From a virus, in the IMG/VR virus record IMGVR_UViG_3300044998_001035, positions 1 through 64,000 of that record: a stretch of DNA of 64,000 bases. One strand, written 5' to 3'. Positions 2,826-46,156 of the stretch are shown here, piece by piece. Within the stretch, counting starts at the first letter, position 1; the number at the start of each line of letters is the position of its first letter. Position numbers and translations under genes: made by a program. The notes beneath the pieces were generated by a model that was given only the letters and a program-made list of their open reading frames with translations, ran no database searches and had not been told where the DNA came from.

Positions 2826-3257
2826 GTGGCGTCGACGAAGAGATACCGGAACTTTGCGAACGTGTCGTTCAACTCCACGACGTTCGCGGGGGTCAAGGAC
2901 GTCGCGTTCGATCGTGGGATTCAGCAGATCCGCGACTCGGCCGACGCGGACGCGTACATCACGCACTCCGTCGTCGGGGTCCAGGACCCGTCGTTCCGTG
3001 TCACGACCACGGAGGCGTCGGCGCTGCTGGCGACCGCCGCCGGGACGCGTGGGGTGTTCACGTTCACGTGGCTGGAGAGCTACAGCCAGGTCGCGTCGGC
3101 GTCCTCGGGGTCGCTGACGTTCACGACGAACAGCCTGACGATGCTCGCGGCGCACTCCCTCCAGGGGGCCCACCAGCAGCTCGGGACGGCGCAGTTCACG
3201 TTCGCGACGTGCTCCGTGGACGGCACGACGAACCCCGTGACCGTGACCACGCTCTGA
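2826..3257 (+). CDS. Putative major tail tube protein
   Basis: 143 aa, Thr/Ser-rich and beta-rich, upstream of the chaperones and tape measure. Confidence 0.6.
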   Translation: MASTKRYRNFANVSFNSTTFAGVKDVAFDRGIQQIRDSADADAYITHSVVGVQDPSFRVTTTEASALLATAAGTRGVFTFTWLESYSQVASASSGSLTFTTNSLTMLAAHSLQGAHQQLGTAQFTFATCSVDGTTNPVTVTTL

Positions 3258-3276
3258 CCCGAACCAGGAGGCACCC

Positions 3277-3873
3277 GTGCCGATCCCAGACCGCAAGCCG
3301 GACGCGATCCTGAGCCCCGGCCCCCCGAACCTCGACAGGTGGTCCAAGCACCCGTGGTTCCGGGACCACCTGTACGGCCTGCTCTCGGCCCCGCCCGGCG
3401 TCCGGGTCGGGGCGAAGGAGCAGGGGCAGATGAGCCTGATCGCCCCCGTCGAGGCGACGCTGCTGTACCCGACGCTCCACCCTCTCGCGGGGCGGGAGCG
3501 TTACGACTGGTACGTGGTGGCCGAGGACACGCGGCTCAACTGGCTCGTCCCGCCCGTGCCCGTGGAGACCTGGTCCGCGATGCCGACCTCGGTCAAGTTC
3601 GGCTACCTCAGGGACGAGGCCGCGGTCGACCCGATGGGCGCGGACGAGCGGGCCGAGTTCGCGGCGTTCGTGGCGCGGCGCAACGCGCTCTACGCGGAGC
3701 TGGCGGCGCGGCGGGACGCGCTCGCGGCGGACCTCGACAGGACGGATGAGGAGCAGGCGGAGATGGAGGCGTGCGAGAGGAAGATGCTCGACCTCGCCGA
3801 CCTGAGCTTCGGCCGCGCCGCGACGGCCGGCGGGCTCGGCGTCGGCCCGGTGCCGAAGTGGCTGGGAGGCTGA
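3277..3873 (+). CDS. Hypothetical tail-module protein
   Basis: GGAGG RBS; colinear ORF. Confidence 0.6.
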   Translation: MPIPDRKPDAILSPGPPNLDRWSKHPWFRDHLYGLLSAPPGVRVGAKEQGQMSLIAPVEATLLYPTLHPLAGRERYDWYVVAEDTRLNWLVPPVPVETWSAMPTSVKFGYLRDEAAVDPMGADERAEFAAFVARRNALYAELAARRDALAADLDRTDEEQAEMEACERKMLDLADLSFGRAATAGGLGVGPVPKWLGG

Positions 3874-3874
3874 C

Positions 3875-4297
3875 TTGTCGGGAGACCTGGACGAGGTGGC
3901 GAGGCGGCGGCCGGACTTCGCGGGCGGCGTGCCCGTCAGGATGGCCGACGGCCGGGAGTGGACGCTGGCGAAGCCGCTGGTCACGTTCGGCTACTCGTCG
4001 GGCGAGATGGGCTTCGACGTGTTCCTGGAGGCGCCCGGCGCCGACGGCTACGCGGAGGCGATCCGCGAGCTGGAGGAGGCGGGCGAGGCCGGCGACATGG
4101 CCCGCGTGGTCCGCGCCCATCTGGCGCTCGGGGCGGCGCTGCTGCGGCGGAACTACACGCTCTCGGACCACGAGGTCGGGGCGCTGCTGCGGTTCGCGTA
4201 CGACCCGGGGCACGCCGAGGCGTACGCGAGGAAGGACGCGGTCGTGGCCGTCGCCCGGGGCGAGGCCCCAAAACCGCCGGCCGCCACCTCCGGCTGA
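3875..4297 (+). CDS. Tail assembly chaperone (gpG-like); -1 frameshift product extends to 4470
   Basis: In-frame slippery C CCA AAA at 4267-4273. The -1 frame is open to 4470, just before the tape measure gene. Confidence 0.8.
   Translation: MSGDLDEVARRRPDFAGGVPVRMADGREWTLAKPLVTFGYSSGEMGFDVFLEAPGADGYAEAIRELEEAGEAGDMARVVRAHLALGAALLRRNYTLSDHEVGALLRFAYDPGHAEAYARKDAVVAVARGEAPKPPAATSG
4267..4273 (+). other. Programmed -1 ribosomal frameshift site (CCCAAAA)
   Basis: X XXY YYZ heptamer in the correct phase (gcc cca aaa). The shift gives PKTAGRHLRLTLLL...MEALL*. Confidence 0.8.
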
Positions 4298-7716: not shown

Positions 7717-8433
7717 ATGCCGCACGAGACGGACCCGATCGCGCCGCCGTCGCAGGAGGGGATCGGGGAGGTCCGCGTCCGCCAGTCGGGCGGGGACGTG
7801 GTGGTGGAGTGGGATCACGAGGGGGGCGGCGAGCCGCACTTCCAGGTCTATCTGGACGGGCGGCTCGCGTGGTCGGGGGCGTCGCGGACCTGCACGCTGC
7901 CGGCCCCGGCGACGCCGCGCCGGGCCGCCCTGGACGTGCTGGCGGTGGACCCGCGCGAGGCGTGGGCGGACCGCTCCGCGGCGCTGCCGGGGCGTTCGGA
8001 CCGGGCGCACCTGACGTGGTCGGGCTCCGAGGGGGCGGCGCGTTACGCCGTGTACATGGGCGCCGCGCCCGGGTCGGGCTCGGTCTCGTACGCGGCCCCG
8101 GTGGCGACGCTGCCGGCGGCCCCGCTGGGCCGGGCGCCCGGCGGCTGGGGCGTCGGCGGGTTCGGGCGCGGCGGGTTCGGGGTCGGGGCGGCGGACTACT
8201 CGTGGACGAGCCCGCCGCTGGCGGGCGGGTCGTGGTCGTTCGGGGTGGCGGCGGTGGACGCGGCGGGGGTGGCGGGGGCGCCGGCCGAGGTGACGGTCGC
8301 GGTCGAGGCGCCGCCGCAGGCGCCGCCGCCGGTCGCGTCGCCGTCGTCGCCCCACTTCGGCCGCCGGCTCCGCGGCGCGTACACCCCGGGGACGCGCGTC
8401 CTGGTCCTGTCGTGGGAGGCGTCGCCGGCCTGA
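7717..8433 (+). CDS. Fn3/Ig-like tail protein
   Basis: LTWSGSEGAARYAVY...SWSFGVAAVDAAG; resembles 2181-2768. Confidence 0.6.
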   Translation: MPHETDPIAPPSQEGIGEVRVRQSGGDVVVEWDHEGGGEPHFQVYLDGRLAWSGASRTCTLPAPATPRRAALDVLAVDPREAWADRSAALPGRSDRAHLTWSGSEGAARYAVYMGAAPGSGSVSYAAPVATLPAAPLGRAPGGWGVGGFGRGGFGVGAADYSWTSPPLAGGSWSFGVAAVDAAGVAGAPAEVTVAVEAPPQAPPPVASPSSPHFGRRLRGAYTPGTRVLVLSWEASPA

Positions 8434-27810: not shown

Positions 27811-28605
27811 TCGGGCTCGATCGCCTGCCGCCCGAGGGCCGGGCCGAGTGGCTGGAGTGGGAGGCAATCGACGTGGCCTGCGGCGTCTGGCAGTCCAAGG
27901 TGGACCGCTCGCGGCGGGCGATCGCGGAACTGGCCGGCTCCGTCCCGTGCTTCTGCGCCGAGTCGTGGGGGAAGGACGGGGTCGTGCTGGCCCACCTGTG
28001 CCGGGCCGTGAACATGTCCATCCCGCTCGTCCACTTCCGGGCCCGGGGCCCGCGCGACCCCGACGCGGACGCGACCCGGGACGCCTACCTGGCGGCCTTC
28101 CCGGGGCAGCGCGTCGTCGAGGTCGAGGTGGACGCCGGCCCGCCCGGCGTTGCCGACGACGGGAACGGGGCGGCGGGGCCTCCCGCCGCACGAGCTGGAC
28201 CGCGAGACGGACGCGGCTTGGAACGCGGCGATCCGGGCCTGCGCCCGGCGCCACGGCCCCCGGCACGTCCCCGGGATTCGCGCCGAGGAGTCGTCGGGCC
28301 GGCTGATCCGGCAGTGGGTGTACGGGGAGGCGAGCCCCAACGGCTGCGCCCCGATCACGCGTTGGTCGACCGCCGACGTGTTCGCGTACCTGGCGACGCG
28401 TCGGCTGCCGGTCCACCCGGCCTACGCGATGCTCGGGGGCGGGCGATGGCCCCGGGAGCGGCTCCGGGTCGCCGAGATCGGGGACACCCACGGCGCCGCG
28501 GGCGGGCGCCGCGAGTGGGAGCGCGAATACTACGGGGACGTGCTCCGCAGGGCCCTGGCGGGCCGGCTCAGCCCCCCCGCGGGGCCGACGCGACCGACAC
28601 CGTGA
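27804..28605 (+). pseudogene. PAPS-reductase (CysH)-like PP-loop protein, frameshifted near 28165-28180
   Basis: SWGKDG PP-loop in one frame; GIRAEES, PITRWSTADVFAYL and LPVHPAY in the +1 frame. Confidence 0.8.
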
Positions 28606-29422
28606 CCGTCGCGGGCCCCGGCACGTACAGCCACGCATAGCCCCGGTCGTCCACGGCCAGCTCCCGGGCCCTTCCGTCCAGCGAGATCGACCAGCCCCGG
28701 CCCGGCGCCATCGCGAGCAGGTAGACGTCCGCCCCATTGGCGCCGATCGAGACGGGGGCGGGGTCGAGCCCGGTCCGGCCCGCGAGCATCAGGACCAGCG
28801 CGTCCCCCAGCCCCGGCCGGCGGACCAGCACCCGGGGCGTCTCGGCGACCTGGACGGCCGCGCCGGGCCCCGGCGGGGCGACGACCGGGGGCGCGGGCCC
28901 CGGGGCGGGCGCGGGGGGCGGCGGTGCCGGGACGGGTGCCGGCGACGTCCCGGGGCCGCCCGCGAGCGCGACGAGCCCGGCCCAGACGGCGCCCGCGGCG
29001 GCGCCGTCGAATCGCCAGCGGGGGGCGTCCTCGCCGCACCACAGGTACACCTCGGGGACGGGGCCGGCCGGCGCGTCCCACGCGTCGCGCAGCGCCAGCC
29101 GGACGACGGCGCCGGGGCGCTCGTCGAGGTACAGGCGGTCGGCCACGACGCGCCGCGCCGCCGCCTCCGCGGGCGCGGCCGGGACGCGGGGCAGCGCCGC
29201 CAGCGCCGCCCAGATCGCGTCCCGCTCCGCGTCCTGGAAGTCGCGCGCGCCCTGGCCCCGGAAGTAGGCCGTCAGCACGCGCCGCGTCGGGGCGGACGGG
29301 TCGGCCCGGAGCAGCGCGAGGTAGATCGGGCTGGCGGGGTCGTCGTCGAGGTAGAGCGCGTCGGCGATCACGTGGCGCACGGCGGGGGCCTCGGAAGTTT
29401 CGGGTTTGAGTCTACAATTCAT
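28568..29422 (-). CDS. Hypothetical protein (start uncertain: 29422 or 29371)
   Basis: Long antisense ORF with internal repeat VIADALYLDD/VVADRLYLDE and a Pro-rich linker. Confidence 0.55.
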   Translation of the reverse strand: MNCRLKPETSEAPAVRHVIADALYLDDDPASPIYLALLRADPSAPTRRVLTAYFRGQGARDFQDAERDAIWAALAALPRVPAAPAEAAARRVVADRLYLDERPGAVVRLALRDAWDAPAGPVPEVYLWCGEDAPRWRFDGAAAGAVWAGLVALAGGPGTSPAPVPAPPPPAPAPGPAPPVVAPPGPGAAVQVAETPRVLVRRPGLGDALVLMLAGRTGLDPAPVSIGANGADVYLLAMAPGRGWSISLDGRARELAVDDRGYAWLYVPGPATVTVSVASAPRGG

Positions 29423-29455
29423 CAGGTATTCTAACCGAATTCGCAATAGAACCCA

Positions 29456-29484
29456 TTGACCCGCGCCGGCGGCGCTGGTAGACA
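29456..29484 (+). promoter_or_regulatory. Candidate promoter for the accessory gene-array-RAMP unit
   Basis: TTGACC-17 bp-TAGACA with a TG extension, at the edge of an AT-rich island (29395-29460). Confidence 0.4.
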
Positions 29485-29573
29485 TGGGTCATGGTGATGT
29501 AAGGCGGGCATGGCGGGCATGGCGCGGCATCGATTGGCACCGGGGACGGGCGGCACGCGAGGAGACGAGCGGC

Positions 29574-30053
29574 ATGGAAATGGCGAGGCGATACCCGCTG
29601 GACTTCGACGCGATCCGGAAGGGGGACGTGCTCACGGCGGACGTCCTCGAGGAAATCTTCGGGGTCGCCCGGTCGCGCCGGGAGTACAGCAGCCGGCAGG
29701 TCGGGCTGGCGAAGCGGATCGAGCGGGAGCTGGCGCTGCGGGGCCGGCCCGCGACCGTGCGGTGCGTGGGGCCGGAGGTGCGCGTGCTGCTGGACGGGGA
29801 GGCGTCGTCGCGCAACGGCCGGCTGTTCGTCCAGTACCGCGGGAGGATGAGCCGGCGGCACGTCAAGATGGTCGAGGTGGACGTCGCGAACCTGACGCCC
29901 GAGGAGCGGGACCGGCACGGCCGGGCGCTGGTCGGCCAGGCGGCCCAGCTCTGCGGGCTCAGGGAGCGCCGCGTCGAGGCTGCGGCGGCGCACAGGCGGT
30001 CCACGCCGGGCCTCGACGCGGGCGGCGCGGGGAGCCTGCCGCCGCCCCCGTGA
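29574..30053 (+). CDS. Accessory protein directly upstream of the pentamer array
   Basis: GAGGAG RBS; basic helical protein; its stop codon abuts the array. Confidence 0.75.
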   Translation: MEMARRYPLDFDAIRKGDVLTADVLEEIFGVARSRREYSSRQVGLAKRIERELALRGRPATVRCVGPEVRVLLDGEASSRNGRLFVQYRGRMSRRHVKMVEVDVANLTPEERDRHGRALVGQAAQLCGLRERRVEAAAAHRRSTPGLDAGGAGSLPPPP

Positions 30054-30486
30054 GGGCCGGCGTGACGGCACAGGGCATGGCGAGGCGGGGCATGGCTGGG
30101 CTGGGCGGGGCAGGGCAGGGCGTGGCGCGGCAGGGCCCGGCTGGGCAGGGGTCAGTGTTTATACCTGCGGCGTGCGGATATCCCCGGTTCGACCCCGGGG
30201 CGCCGCCATCCCGGTATGGCGTGGCATGGCTGGCCAAGGCGGGGCTGGGCCCGGCGGGGCGGGGCTTGGCTGGGCGAGGCAGGGGTCAGTGTTTATGCCT
30301 GCGGCGAGTGGCAAGGCCCCGGTTCGACCCCGGGGCGTCGCGATCCGGCAGGGCGTGGCGTGGCATGGCGAGGCAGGGCGTGGCTCGGCTGGGCGGGGCT
30401 CGGCTGGGCGGGGCTCGGCTGGACAGGGGTCAGTGTTTATACCTGCGGCGTGCGGATATCCCCGGTTCGACCCCGGGGCGCCGCGA
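30054..30486 (+). ncRNA. Array of three GGC-NN pentamer tracts, each closed by a conserved tRNA-like element (putative guide-RNA precursor)
   Basis: Phased tracts at 30074-30148 (15 units), 30213-30282 (14) and 30347-30426 (16). Constant elements at 30149-30206, 30283-30341 and 30427-30484; the first and third are identical. Confidence 0.85.
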
Positions 30487-30548
30487 TGGGGTGCGGGACG
30501 TCCCTGGCCCCGGTCGGGTCCGGTTTTGCATTGGTGGAGGAGGACATC

Positions 30549-31148
30549 ATGCTCATGCACAAGCACGTCTCGTTCATGGTCCGCGGGCTTTCCCCGCTGC
30601 TGCTGCACAACGGGCAGATCGCGAACCCGCTGAACAAGTATGCCAAGGCGCTCAAGGAGATCTCGGCCAAGCGCAAGAAGACCGACGCCGACTACGAGGC
30701 GATGGCGGAGATCGAGTGGATGGGCGGCCTCTACCTCGACGAGCACTCGCGCCCGATCCTCCCGGGCGAGGCGATCGAGTCCGCGTTCCTCAAGGCGGCC
30801 AAGCAGATCAGGATGGGCGAGAAGGCCAAGGCCGGGATCATCTCAGACGGCATGTGGCCGATCATCCACGCGGGCCCCAAGGACCTGGAGGCGCTGTCGA
30901 AGGACCCCAGGTTCCGGGACACCCGCCGCGTCCGGGTCGGGTCGGCGTCGGTGATGCGCACCCGGCCGATCTTCGTGCCGTGGTCCCTGGAGTTCGAGAT
31001 CAGCTACCTGCCCGACCTGTTCAACGAGAAGCAGGTCGTGGACACGGTCGTCACGATGGGCCGAGTCATCGGCGTCGGGGACTACACGCCGAAGTACGGC
31101 CGGTTCGCCGTCGAGTCCTCGAAGGCCGTCGCGCACAAGGCCGCATGA
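30549..31148 (+). CDS. Stand-alone Cas7/RAMP-like protein (Vipr-like)
   Basis: GGAGGAGG RBS; VRGLSPLLLHNG (RAMP beta1), ILPGEAIESAFLKAA, and C-terminal Gly loop GRVIGVGDYTPKYGRFAV. Confidence 0.8.
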   Translation: MLMHKHVSFMVRGLSPLLLHNGQIANPLNKYAKALKEISAKRKKTDADYEAMAEIEWMGGLYLDEHSRPILPGEAIESAFLKAAKQIRMGEKAKAGIISDGMWPIIHAGPKDLEALSKDPRFRDTRRVRVGSASVMRTRPIFVPWSLEFEISYLPDLFNEKQVVDTVVTMGRVIGVGDYTPKYGRFAVESSKAVAHKAA

Positions 31149-31157
31149 CCGCCCCGG

Positions 31158-31186
31158 CCCTGGCGATGCGCGGCGCATCGCCAGGG
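31158..31186 (+). other. 13-bp perfect hairpin just after the RAMP gene (transcript end or stabiliser)
   Basis: CCCTGGCGATGCG-cgg-CGCATCGCCAGGG; no U-tract. Confidence 0.55.
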
Positions 31187-31290
31187 GGCGCGCGGGACGC
31201 CGCGATGCGCCGCGCATCACTCAAGGCGCGGCGCCGGGCGCGCCGATAGACGGGCCGTGGGGCCGAAGGCGCCCCCGGAGGCCCGCCATC

Positions 31291-31522
31291 ATGTACACGG
31301 TCGCGTTCCTGAATCAGAAGGGGGGCGTCGGCAAGACGTCCTCCGCGTACCACCTCGCGGGGGAGCTGGCGCGGCGCGACCTGCGCGTGCTCGCCTGCGA
31401 CCTGGACCCGCAGGCGTCGCTCACTCAGGGGCGAGTTCCTGGTCCGGCTCGACGACCCGCACGCCGACGGCGCGGCGTTCGCGGAGGCCCTGCGGGCCGC
31501 GCTCGCGAAGGCCGCCGGCTAG
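31291..31522 (+). pseudogene. parA: ParA N-terminal fragment joined out of frame to an unrelated C-terminal fragment
   Basis: MYTVAFLNQKGGVGKTSS...DLDPQASLTQG, after which homology stops. Another frame reads EFLVRLDDPHADGAAFAEALRAALAKAAG*. Confidence 0.8.
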
Positions 31523-31740
31523 GCCGGGCGGCACACACGGCGCCCGGATCGCGATTGACTCCGGGCTCGAGTCGTGTTGAGATCGGGATGGGCCGGCCGC
31601 GACGAGCGCCGGCCCGGCGCGGCCCGCCGGCCGTCGCCGCCGGGGTTCGTCGGCCACCCGGGGGGGGATGGCCGGCGTCGCCCCGAGCGGGGCGCCCGCG
31701 CGGGCCGTCGCCGCACCCGGGCGAGGGGGAGGAAGGCGCC

Positions 31741-32274
31741 GTGATCCTCCGCTACGACTCCGAGGCCGGCACGGTGGTCGCCGAGCCGCCACGCGTCTGG
31801 GTGCTGGTCGGCCAGGTCGCCTCCGGCAAGAGCACGTACGCCGCGCGCCGCGCCCGCCGCGGCGCGATCGCGGTCTGCCACGACGATCTGGTCCGCGCCG
31901 TCCACGCGGGCGGGGCCCACGAGGCGGGGCTGCGCGACTTCTACCGCGCGGCCGAGGAGCACCTGGCGTGGTCGGCGCTGGCGGCCGGCCGGCCCGTGGT
32001 GGTGGACCGGACGAACCTGACGGCGGCGGAGCGGCGGCGCTGGGTGGCGCTGGCGGGGCGGGCGGGCGTCGAGGCCGTGGCGGTGGCGTTCCCGCGCGAG
32101 CGCTGGCCGGTCCACGCGCGTCGTCGTCACGAGCACGACGCGCGCGGCCTGACCCTGGCGGGCTGGGGCCGGGTCGCGCTGCGGCTGGAGCGGCAGGCGC
32201 TGGCGGAGCCGCTGGACGCGGCCGGGGAGGGGTTCGCGCGGCGCGTCGACGCCGGCCCGGCCCGGCGCCGGTGA
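31741..32274 (+). CDS. AAA_33 P-loop kinase (polynucleotide-kinase-like)
   Basis: VLVGQVASGKSTYA...CHDDL...VVVDRTNLTAAERRRW. Confidence 0.85.
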   Translation: MILRYDSEAGTVVAEPPRVWVLVGQVASGKSTYAARRARRGAIAVCHDDLVRAVHAGGAHEAGLRDFYRAAEEHLAWSALAAGRPVVVDRTNLTAAERRRWVALAGRAGVEAVAVAFPRERWPVHARRRHEHDARGLTLAGWGRVALRLERQALAEPLDAAGEGFARRVDAGPARRR

Positions 32275-32825
32275 GGCTGCGCCGGGTGGTGACGGGCGGC
32301 CAGTCGGGCGCCGACGTCGCGGCCTGGCGCGCGGCCCGCGCGGCGGGGCTCCTCACCTCGGGCTGGATGCCCGCCGGCTACCTGACCGAGGACGGCCCGA
32401 GGCCGGGATACGCCGAGGAGTTCGGCGCGCTCTGCCTGGACGGGCCTGCGCCGTCCGGCGCGGAGCTGGGGCGGCAGTACGCCGCGCGGCGTCGGATGAA
32501 CGCGGCGTGGGCGGACTGCGCGCTGCTGCTGGGGGACGCGGGCAGCCGCGGGGGCCGCGGCCTCGTCGCGGACTGCCGCGCCCTGGGCGTGCCGCTGCTG
32601 CACTGCGGGCCGGGCGGGGTCGCGCCCTCCGTCGCGGCCGACTGGGTCCTGTCCCACGACCCGCTCGTGCTGCTCGTGGCCGGGAACCGCGGCTCGGCCG
32701 GGCCCGACGTCGAGCCCCGGGCCGGCCGGTTCGTGCTGGCCGTGCTCCGGGCGCTGGCGGACGCGGACGCGACCCTGGGTGCGATCCTGGCGTCCCCGCC
32801 GCCGCGCCTCGCGACCGACCGATAA
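32271..32825 (+). CDS. SLOG-family (circularly permuted YpsA / 'MoCo carrier') protein
   Basis: VVTGGQSGADVAA...GWMPAGYLTEDG...Y..RRRMN...LLVAGNR. Confidence 0.85.
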   Translation: MRLRRVVTGGQSGADVAAWRAARAAGLLTSGWMPAGYLTEDGPRPGYAEEFGALCLDGPAPSGAELGRQYAARRRMNAAWADCALLLGDAGSRGGRGLVADCRALGVPLLHCGPGGVAPSVAADWVLSHDPLVLLVAGNRGSAGPDVEPRAGRFVLAVLRALADADATLGAILASPPPRLATDR

Positions 32826-32857
32826 CGGAAGTTATGTGCGCCCCGACGCCCGGGGCG

Positions 32858-33106
32858 TCACGCCGACGGCGGGAGCCCGTCCGCCAGGCGCCGGACCTCC
32901 CGGGCGATGTCGCGCTCCGCGGCCTGGGCCGCCAGCGCGGTCACGTACTCCGCCACGCTGACCCCGGTCAGGCTCGCGGCCAGCTTCGCCCGCTCCAGGA
33001 CCGCCGGGTCGATCCGCACCGCGGCCGCGTGCCTGCGCACCTCCGACTTCTTGCCCACGCCGGTCCCGCTCCCGCCCCCGTCCCCGCTCCCGTCCCCGCT
33101 CGCCAT
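32858..33106 (-). CDS. Ribbon-helix-helix-type small regulator
   Basis: AVRIDPAVLERAKLAASLTGVSVAEYV; GGAGG RBS. Confidence 0.75.
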   Translation of the reverse strand: MASGDGSGDGGGSGTGVGKKSEVRRHAAAVRIDPAVLERAKLAASLTGVSVAEYVTALAAQAAERDIAREVRRLADGLPPSA

Positions 33107-33186
33107 AACTCCCTCCCCCCGAGATCCCCGCCCGCGCCGGCCCGCGCCGACGACACTCCTCAGCATCGTAGGCGGCCCCGCCGACT

Positions 33187-33249
33187 GTGAACAGTGGCAA
33201 AAAAAATTCCTGGCACACTGTTGACACGGTGTACCGCGATCCGTATAGT
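33187..33249 (+). promoter_or_regulatory. Near-consensus sigma70 early promoter with UP element and operator-like IR
   Basis: TTGACA(33221)-17 bp-TATAGT(33244); upstream A-tract; GTGAACAGTG/CACTGTTGAC imperfect IR overlapping the -35 box. Confidence 0.85.
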
Positions 33250-33296
33250 ATGGGTGTAGGACGCAGCGACGGACACAATCAACCGGAGGCGAGGCG

Positions 33297-33572
33297 ATGA
33301 CGACCCTGACCCCGACTAAGAGCGCGAGCAGGCTGGCCGAGGCGACGAAGCACACCGTCAAGTACCTCAACGACGAGGACCTGTGGGCGATCTTCAGCCC
33401 GGCCGGCGAGGAGGTCAGCTCCGGCTGGGGGACGCGGGCCGAGGCGTGGGAGGGGGCGAGGGAGGAGCAGGACGCGCTGATGGAATCCGCGATCGAGGAG
33501 CGGCTGGCGAGGATGGGCCGGGCCGAGTACCACAAGCTCGCGGCCCTGATGGAAGCGGCGGGGCTCCTCTGA
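33297..33572 (+). CDS. Hypothetical early protein
   Basis: First ORF after the strong promoter; GGAGG RBS. Confidence 0.65.
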   Translation: MTTLTPTKSASRLAEATKHTVKYLNDEDLWAIFSPAGEEVSSGWGTRAEAWEGAREEQDALMESAIEERLARMGRAEYHKLAALMEAAGLL

Positions 33573-33583
33573 GCCCCGCGAGG

Positions 33584-33626
33584 CCCCCGGCAGGCAGGCC
33601 CCCCGGTTCGAGCCCGGGGGCGGGGG
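33584..33626 (+). ncRNA. tRNA-like minihelix (acceptor + T-arm) in an intergenic region
   Basis: CCCCCG-linker-CCCCCGG-TTCGAGC-CCGGGGG-CGGGGG; same architecture as the array separators. Confidence 0.6.
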
Positions 33627-45766: not shown

Positions 45767-46156
45767 GGGGCGTCGCGGGCGCGTGGCGCGCGAGCGCCGC
45801 GGGGGTTCGACTCCCCCGGCGTCCCCTGGGGGCGTGGGCACCCCCCCCTTCGGGCGAGAAGGTGCCAGGCAATCCGAGGGTTTCATGCACGCCTTTACGA
45901 GGATTCGCGCTCCGCCCCGATGCCCCACCCATATGGGGGGGCTCCCCTCCCTTGAAGGCGGAACTTTCCGGGCGCCGCCTCCCGCCCAGGACGTGATCGG
46001 AAGCATTCTGGGTCGCCATCGTCGGGGATCGACGCGAAAGGAGGTGGTCATGCGACGGTCGGGTTGACGGCCCGACGTGCGGGGGTGGGGAAACCGGCTC
46101 GCCGGCCCGCGGTTCGACTCCGCGGCCCCCGCATGCCCCCCCTCGCGGGGGGGGCC
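45767..46156 (+). ncRNA. Putative structured ncRNA bounded by two tRNA-like elements (45767-45826, 46079-46133)
   Basis: GGGGG-TTCGACT-CCCCC and CCGCGG-TTCGACT-CCGCGG T-arms, each closed by an acceptor-like stem. The interior has several stems and no convincing CDS. Confidence 0.6.

Follow-up and report, generated by a model that had tools for sequence, protein, structure and literature searches.

How are several guides, laid out in tandem between two protein genes of a phage, separated into single molecules? The question is raised by an array in a window of 64,000 nt (the whole stretch of DNA analysed here), which forms the first part of a 78,806-bp phage record that carries direct terminal repeats and is rated complete. 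The window has a G+C content of 75.8%. A non-coding gap of 495 bp separates the plus-strand genes 29574–30053 and 30549–31148, and three tandem units, spaced by 134 and 144 nt, occupy positions 30054–30485. The first-pass annotation had described the separators of the array as tRNA minihelices, had suggested processing by the RNase P and RNase Z of the host rather than by Cas6, and had referred to a RAMP family.

Identity of the locus

VIPR is a CRISPR-related gene silencer that was first described in 2026 (bioRxiv 10.64898/2026.04.26.720920, 10.64898/2026.04.26.720927). In the account given by the preprints, a phage-encoded RAMP protein (Vipr) acts with vrRNAs, each consisting of 9–16 GGY/NN repeats and then a constant 3′ tail; the vrRNAs silence DNA, with one Vipr protomer modelled per pentamer and the NN dinucleotides reading the DNA target, one base being skipped between successive pairs. 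Because the 'RAMP' gene downstream of the array encodes the Vipr protein, the locus is a VIPR system; the array belongs to a system reported in preprints of 2026 and is not an unknown CRISPR-like one.

The vipr product (30549–31148) matches phrog_4652 over its full length (E 1e-50), and its AlphaFold2 model (pLDDT 94) has Csm3/Cmr4 Cas7 subunits as best Foldseek matches (E 4e-6, TM ~0.5). A profile of the Vipr family matches PDB 36pp_D, 'SUSP1 Vipr protein', over its full length (E 4e-50); direct comparison with SUSP1 Vipr (YP_009199429) gives 34% identity (BLASTP, E 6e-39), and phrog_4652 includes both of them. Homologs are present in Felixounavirus-type coliphages, Mycobacterium phage LittleE, Gordonia phages and Pseudomonas phages. 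No close relative emerged when viral_contigs was searched with the single protein; searches based on an alignment were successful. A period-5 signal is conspicuous beside vipr in 80 viral loci. Across 245 Vipr loci, drawn from viral, genome and metagenome collections, the tract caller assigns 632 pentamer tracts to the vipr strand and 2 to the opposite strand. From these sequence comparisons we consider the assignment to the VIPR systems firm, and interpret the tracts as vrRNA guides.

A CRISPR array was rejected, as the units consist of pentamer tracts plus a tail rather than of identical 25–40-nt direct repeats with unique spacers in between, and no match to a cas family was obtained among the neighbour genes of the array. 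Our first ideas (a ParA-type centromere, a replication origin and a TRAP-like protein-binding RNA) were dropped after the link to Vipr had been found. Searches with the guides themselves gave no self-targets in the phage above shuffled-unit controls, no exact match in viral_contigs to the 3′-proximal 11 units of any of the three guides, and no blastn match of the array to phage records.

The locus is most likely a phage VIPR operon in the order accessory gene, three vrRNA genes, vipr. Its features, all on the plus strand, are as follows (R1 is the covariance model described below).

29574–30053, plus strand: accessory gene, 159 aa, first gene of the probable operon (GC3 0.92; ribosome-binding site and ATG seen at 29574)
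30054–30148, plus strand: vrRNA 1 tract, four degenerate in-phase units and then 15 GGC-NN pentamers (30074–30148) (unit parsing, period-5 signal)
30149–30166, plus strand: junction 1, terminal GGG unit and AU-rich 18-nt handle (sequence)
30167–30207, plus strand: tRNA-like minihelix 1, with acceptor-like stem, GG linker, T-arm and discriminator C30207 (structural scan; model R1, 19.6 bits)
30208–30282, plus strand: vrRNA 2, 5-nt lead and 14 pentamers (30213–30282) (unit parsing)
30283–30300, plus strand: junction 2, with one A-to-G difference from copies 1 and 3 (sequence)
30301–30342, plus strand: tRNA-like minihelix 2, with a different linker, a G-U in the acceptor-like stem and discriminator G30342 (model R1, 25.1 bits, E 7e-4)
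30343–30426, plus strand: vrRNA 3, 4-nt lead and 16 pentamers (30347–30426) (unit parsing)
30427–30444, plus strand: junction 3 (sequence)
30445–30485, plus strand: tRNA-like minihelix 3, with discriminator G30485 (structural scan; model R1, 20.8 bits)
30549–31148, plus strand: vipr gene, 199 aa, Vipr RAMP protein, guide-binding filament subunit (phrog_4652, PDB 36pp_D)
31149–31195, plus strand: GC-rich inverted repeat I7, directly 3′ of the vipr stop (23-nt arms, 83% complementary)

Homologs of the accessory gene adjoin vipr in 46 of the 245 loci and are co-oriented with it in every case (tblastn). The gene is without a match in Pfam, PHROG and PADLOC, and sequence similarity to SUSP1 vap1 was undetectable. 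A promoter/terminator scan found no consensus promoter or terminator inside the operon; a weak promoter-like TTGACC-17-TAGACA, spotted by eye, lies at 29456–29484. The inverted repeat at 31149–31195 is possibly the end of the operon; it has no T run, and the terminator scan made no call there.

Some observations on the surroundings may be added. The 5′ leader of the accessory gene contains, at 29500–29540 and directly upstream of the ribosome-binding site, a short degenerate GGC run in partial 5-nt phase, which from its pattern is a possible candidate for a Vipr binding site in autoregulation. Downstream of vipr, two long plus-strand ORFs overlap within 31291–32825: the first (31291–32274) has a ParA-like N-terminus (aa 3–47) and an AAA_33 kinase-like domain (aa 169–270), the second (31668–32825) a cpYpsA SLOG domain (aa 207–359), and the pair may represent a frameshift or a fusion. 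Further on, at 33221–33249 and preceded by an A-run, a sigma-70-type promoter close to consensus (TTGACA, 17 nt, TATAGT) stands where a block of small rightward genes starts; no other strong promoter match occurs within 28800–33400. DNA near-identical to the phage record occurs in hot-spring and microbial-mat metagenomes, and partial matches (about half of the sampled words) in bioreactor-sludge and wastewater metagenomes.

Anatomy of the separators

Each unit of the array is laid out as a pentamer tract, a terminal GGG unit, an 18-nt AU-rich junction and a 41-nt minihelix. Unit parsing gives tracts of 15, 14 and 16 GGC-NN units in strict 5-nt register. The junction (GGGTCAGTGTTTAT(A/G)CCT) has the same base at 17 of its 18 positions in the three copies and is not predicted to form a stable hairpin. 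It is followed by GCGGCG, a linker of 9–10 nt, CCCCGG-TTCGACC-CCGGGG and CG(C/T)CGC (30167–30206, 30301–30341 and 30445–30484), and then by a discriminator base (30207, 30342 and 30485). VIPR guides have a constant structured 3′ tail, and here the element in that position, junction plus minihelix, is near-identical in three copies, although its structure is unlike the published pseudoknot.

Aligned with a tRNA, the minihelix comprises a 7-bp acceptor stem and a 5-bp T-stem (or 6 + 6), giving 12 stacked layers in all three copies, a total that other loci retain through compensatory changes; the 7-nt T-loop is closed by G53–C61, and the D and anticodon arms are absent. The motifs reported in the first-pass annotation are all present, as are the different linker of copy 2 and its C-to-T change, which keeps the pairing as G-U. 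Its reading of '...CGCCA' in copy 1 as a CCA end does not hold: the stem ends with the first C of this supposed CCA, the sequence in copies 2 and 3 is CGA, and CCA is encoded in none of about 26 homologous copies.

A full tRNA gene was rejected, as the 9–10 nt between the acceptor strand and the T-stem leave no room for D and anticodon arms. ARAGORN makes two calls on the window, both dubious. The 93-nt 'tRNA-Pro' at 30393–30485 is false, the tract being borrowed for the missing arms, and the 'tRNA-???' at 8263–8354, which has a 4-base anticodon and lies in a GC-rich coding region, is almost certainly a false positive. On the 245 loci the program made 8 tRNA calls, none convincingly within an array. 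An Rfam scan of 28000–33000 (E up to 1) returned no family, no tRNA and no ribozyme.

The 19-nt T-arm word occurs exactly in three places; with up to 3 mismatches allowed there are 6 matches against 0.69 expected, and none of 100 shuffles reaches 6. The single-sequence folding energies of the minihelices are no better than those of shuffles (z from −0.6 to +0.7), so that support for the structure comes from comparison across loci.

These results bear on a sceptical interpretation, which denies the elements any role in the array and sees in them decayed tRNA genes, tRNA fragments of the attP type or GC-rich hairpins due to chance. Phage attachment sites often hold 3′ fragments of tRNA genes; one element is called tRNA-Pro by ARAGORN, and the folds are no more stable than shuffles. 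Yet the three copies stand in register with the tracts, an Rfam tRNA match is absent, and both acceptor strands are present, unlike in attP fragments. The distribution of the element over other loci, described below, bears on the same point.

Two further observations concern the array and the window. In relatives from sludge and wastewater metagenomes, tract 1 (near 30114) is shorter by 10 nt, exactly two pentamer units, and the near relative from bioreactor sludge in which these two units are missing carries several NN substitutions too; because the deletion comprises whole units and is accompanied by NN substitutions, guides seem to change by whole units. Elsewhere in the window, three further T-arm/acceptor-like elements occur on the plus strand at 33585–33626, 45795–45822 (45777–45824) and 46080–46131, all intergenic and with no adjoining pentamer tract. 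In the last, the stem is 7 bp long (GCGGGGG/CCCCCGC), the linker contains GG and there is an additional hairpin of 4 bp; the first two score weakly with model R1 (~18–20 bits). On their sequence these elements may punctuate other phage transcripts in a tRNA-like manner, or may be terminators.

The module across Vipr loci

A structural scan of the Vipr loci for an acceptor strand, short linker, T-arm and second acceptor strand found 24 elements on the vipr strand and 1 on the opposite strand, with stem sequences that are quite different. A covariance model (R1), built from six copies and searched against both strands of 1.2 Mb, gave 31 matches in about 15 of the 245 loci, every one of them on the vipr strand. 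Four of the copies lie in LittleE and three in Gordonia phage MakoManhole; other carriers are contigs of Streptomyces, Piscicoccus, Methyloceanibacter, a Saccharibacteria MAG and an Alistipes MAG. Three weaker copies occur in Trine, likewise a Gordonia phage. The model has no match in SUSP1, wV8 and LESphi2, which have pseudoknot or hairpin tails. Exact searches of genome_contigs and viral_contigs with the junction and the T-arm/acceptor motifs found none.

Covariance analysis over homologous loci had been named in the first-pass annotation as a check on its reading. In the model-fitted alignment, which is biased towards the structure, 91.8% of cells are paired, compared with 52.5% in shuffles and 43–48% in controls with slid partners; double-sided changes are seen in 11 of the 12 pairs and number 115 (35 expected). 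A count that is independent of the model gives the same strand preference, in steps. The bare pattern G-TTCRA-NN-C occurs 288 times on the vipr strand and 132 times on the other, falling to 53 and 5 when a perfect 5-bp stem is demanded and to 18 and 0 when an acceptor stem is demanded as well. Of the 53 T-arm hairpins on the vipr strand, 32 adjoin a tract, in 19 loci.

The earlier description of the separators as an acceptor/T-arm mimic whose structure is conserved over its sequence is upheld by this covariation across very different phages. The comparison shows that the minihelix did not arise by chance and supports the separators as real mimics of the tRNA acceptor/T-arm. Decayed genes, attachment-site remnants or chance hairpins would have to occur in about 15 unrelated loci with different stem sequences, always on the vipr strand and beside tracts; the cross-locus covariation comes close to refuting such origins, which we consider hardly credible.

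Within the module the T-loop and the GG of the linker hardly vary: all 26 copies have U54, U55, A58 and the G53–C61 pair, 25 of them have C56, and the linker contains GG in 25–26 of the 26, with a consensus like A-A-U-G-G-C-A. The D-loop of tRNAs follows the pattern A14 R15 .. G18 G19. A21, and the linker consensus reads like a D-loop without its stem, in which the GG would take the place of the D-loop and close the tRNA elbow. The three copies in the window are divergent members (19.6–25.1 bits) that retain the GG and the T-loop. Over the 26 copies, position +1 shows no preference for G, and C or G predominates at the discriminator.

The surroundings of the module vary. The next tract starts 0–8 nt past the discriminator across loci (5–6 nt in this phage), and in several loci the minihelix follows its tract by only 2–5 nt. 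In LittleE, L009, L012 and L138 a small hairpin lies between tract and minihelix. Three loci have a leading minihelix with no upstream tract, before the first guide: in MakoManhole (L001:1651) it follows the stop of gene 79, in L082 (position 4138) it follows a coding region, and in Trine three minihelices alternate with two tracts directly 3′ of the vipr stop, a minihelix coming first.

The junctions of the other minihelix loci are short and GGUA-type, or are hairpins, the AU-rich type being specific to this phage. This bears on the idea that a general endonuclease (RNase E, G or J) cuts the AU-rich, single-stranded junction (GUGUUUAUAC), with the GC-rich minihelix as a barrier or insulator only. 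AU-rich single-stranded sites are typical targets of RNase E, and within a genome of 76% GC the 18 nt of the junction stand out as an AU-rich island, near-identical three times over and with no stable structure predicted. Such a cut site would be limited to this phage, whereas the tRNA-like module is what all minihelix loci conserve, and the conservation of the T-loop and of the linker GG would be left unexplained; we regard this idea as improbable.

On a Vipr tree made with MAFFT and FastTree the carriers are scattered, eight of them in one actinobacterial clade of 13 tips and the others dispersed; a Fitch count of minihelix presence gives 11 changes, compared with 15.6 for shuffled labels. 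The nearest relative of the window's locus, L008, has plain hairpin tails.

Proposed release of the guides

We propose that host tRNA-maturation enzymes (RNase Z and RNase P) cut the guides apart at the mimics, and put the probability of this reading, which is based on sequence comparison, at roughly 0.6. The three guides would be transcribed as one precursor, in which the mimics would serve these enzymes as punctuation marks. Cuts after 30207, 30342 and 30485, made by RNase Z or by another activity that does the same at the 3′ side, would close one unit and make the 5′ end of the next guide; this would be the step required at each junction. The geometry leads one to expect RNase P cuts at 30166/30167, 30300/30301 and 30444/30445, where each mimic has its 5′ edge. 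If both enzymes cut, the guides would be ~93–102 nt long and carry a constant 3′ handle; with no RNase P cut they would be ~135–143 nt long and end in a tRNA-like 3′ tail. We infer the single precursor, both cleavages and the form loaded into Vipr; the predicted cut sites coincide with the boundaries of the minihelices.

Several features favour this proposal. The leading minihelices of MakoManhole, L082 and Trine argue for punctuation, since there is nothing upstream for them to cap, and a single cut after the discriminator would make both ends, because the next tract starts 0–8 nt further on. RNase P, RNase Z and the CCA-adding enzyme all read the tRNA elbow, and the invariant T-loop with its D-loop-like GG points to a reader of that elbow. 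An encoded CCA is an anti-determinant for RNase Z, whose substrates lack it, and for this reason the CCA-less copies fit RNase Z substrates. In its scattered occurrence the module looks more like a portable element for host enzymes to read than like a handle that co-evolves with the protein. By analogy, the vrRNA arrays with interspersed hammerhead ribozymes would be a precedent for array processing by inserted RNA modules.

Other features count against it. Four sequencing runs labelled RNA-Seq, which are probably DNA, gave mostly cross-mapping from other pentamer tracts and no usable RNA ends. The lack of a preference for G at +1 and the predominance of C or G at the discriminator set the minihelices apart from typical bacterial tRNAs. 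A gap of 2–5 nt between tract and minihelix counts against an RNase P cut in those loci, because almost no tail would remain. The 5′ end of guide 1 needs another explanation, as no minihelix precedes tract 1 here. The first-pass annotation had also held that the mimics explain why no processing nuclease is encoded. This argument fails: VIPR loci in general, including that of SUSP1, which is free of minihelices, encode no such nuclease, so its absence does not in itself demand tRNA mimicry.

The 3′ tail of SUSP1 vrRNAs is a pseudoknot that remains on the mature vrRNA and caps the filament (VIPR preprints), and by analogy the minihelix might simply be the tail. It would then be a structural counterpart of that pseudoknot, kept on the mature guide, capping or nucleating the Vipr filament and blocking 3′ exonucleases, whilst general RNases and trimming to the protected complex would make the ends, with tRNA enzymes unnecessary. 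Because the SUSP1 tail (~40 nt, structured) stays on the guide and has been seen capping the filament, a purely structural role is a serious rival, if an unlikely one; each tract of the present array has its own 3′ minihelix, and in the loci where the minihelix follows the tract by 2–5 nt it would be the sole tail. Leading minihelices with no tract to cap are difficult to reconcile with such a role, which moreover would need neither an invariant T-loop nor a D-loop-like GG. Nor does the module track the protein on the Vipr tree, where its carriers are scattered, and in LittleE, L009, L012 and L138 the tail might instead be the hairpin 5′ of the minihelix.

Processing by host tRNA enzymes can be set beside known systems. 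The type II VIPR of SUSP1 (Vipr, vap1 and vrRNAs; 10.64898/2026.04.26.720920, 10.64898/2026.04.26.720927) is alike in its homologous Vipr (34% identity, same PHROG), in guides of 9–16 GGY-NN pentamers followed by a constant 3′ element, and in being a phage-encoded minimal locus of vipr and one accessory gene. It differs in its ~40-nt pseudoknot tail, which has no likeness to tRNA; in the window, moreover, the accessory gene lies upstream, is unlike vap1 in sequence, and is separated from vipr by three guides. Arrays of vrRNAs with interspersed hammerhead ribozymes are reported for VIPR types I and V (fig. S19 of 10.64898/2026.04.26.720920). There, too, a structured RNA module lies between guides and is thought to split the array into single vrRNAs, but the hammerhead cuts itself, whereas the minihelix, with no catalytic motif or Rfam ribozyme match, would rely on host RNase P/Z.

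Outside VIPR, the tRNA-like domain of tmRNA and the minihelix model substrates of RNase P consist of an acceptor stem stacked upon a T-arm; they have an analogue of the D-loop and lack an anticodon arm. The window's minihelix shares the stacked stems and the missing anticodon arm, and its linker GG is a candidate D-loop analogue; it differs in lacking a tag reading frame, an encoded CCA and the G3-U70 identity pair, and it gives no tmRNA or tRNA match in ARAGORN or Rfam. Polycistronic tRNA-gRNA arrays were reportedly engineered for CRISPR multiplexing by Xie et al. in 2015. Such arrays, which are in use (PMC4736081), likewise alternate guides with tRNA-shaped modules for release by the RNase P and RNase Z of the cell; they are synthetic, contain full tRNAs and serve Cas9, whereas the present array is natural, has a 41-nt half-tRNA and a Vipr filament, and its cleavage is putative. 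In the MALAT1/mascRNA and MEN-beta 3′ modules (PMC11693755) a tRNA mimic within a longer transcript sets ends via RNase P and RNase Z; these are eukaryotic, and mascRNA is cloverleaf-like with a remnant of the anticodon arm, whereas the window's minihelix has neither a D-stem nor an anticodon arm.

VIPR is very recent among RNA-guided systems, and the splitting of its arrays into single guides has barely been treated. The preprints describe guides with their own transcripts, staggered arrays and hammerhead-interspersed arrays. In the main text of the VIPR discovery, cryo-EM and SUSP1-satellite preprints the terms 'tRNA', 'RNase P' and 'RNase Z' are absent, and a language-model survey has no mention of a tRNA-like element in VIPR arrays. 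The earlier suggestion of a possible new feature within a known RAMP family agrees with this, in that the VIPR system is known and a separator of the tRNA-like type is undescribed in the text of these preprints; the authors' 'staggered arrays' might include minihelix loci without the mimicry being named.

If the separators act as proposed, they would be a third solution for guide release, one that depends on the host, and would make the supply of guides dependent on host enzymes that are essential and not easy for a competitor to eliminate; they would also explain how several guides can lie within one operon between two protein genes, and would be a natural counterpart of the engineered tRNA-gRNA arrays. 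A broader generalisation, whose prospects we judge to be evenly balanced, is that some VIPR systems mature their arrays by hijacking host tRNA processing (RNase Z, RNase P and perhaps CCA addition) through a portable 41-nt half-tRNA, that in this phage the same kind of module also punctuates other transcripts, at 33585, 45795 and 46080, and that it moves between Vipr lineages independently of the protein.

Conservation of the 41-nt module extends from actinobacteriophages to contigs of Bacteroidota and Saccharibacteria, and the cultured phages LittleE, MakoManhole and Trine carry it; being short, conserved and present in cultured phages, it is directly testable and could serve in the construction of multiplexed VIPR guide arrays. 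In two of these phages an annotated gene overlaps the vrRNA array with its minihelices, namely gene 40 of Trine (MH271318; locus 3073–3876, array L249:3056–3340) and gp35 of LittleE (locus 3542–3931 on the opposite strand, array L002:3654–3906), and both genes are probably mis-annotated, at least in part.
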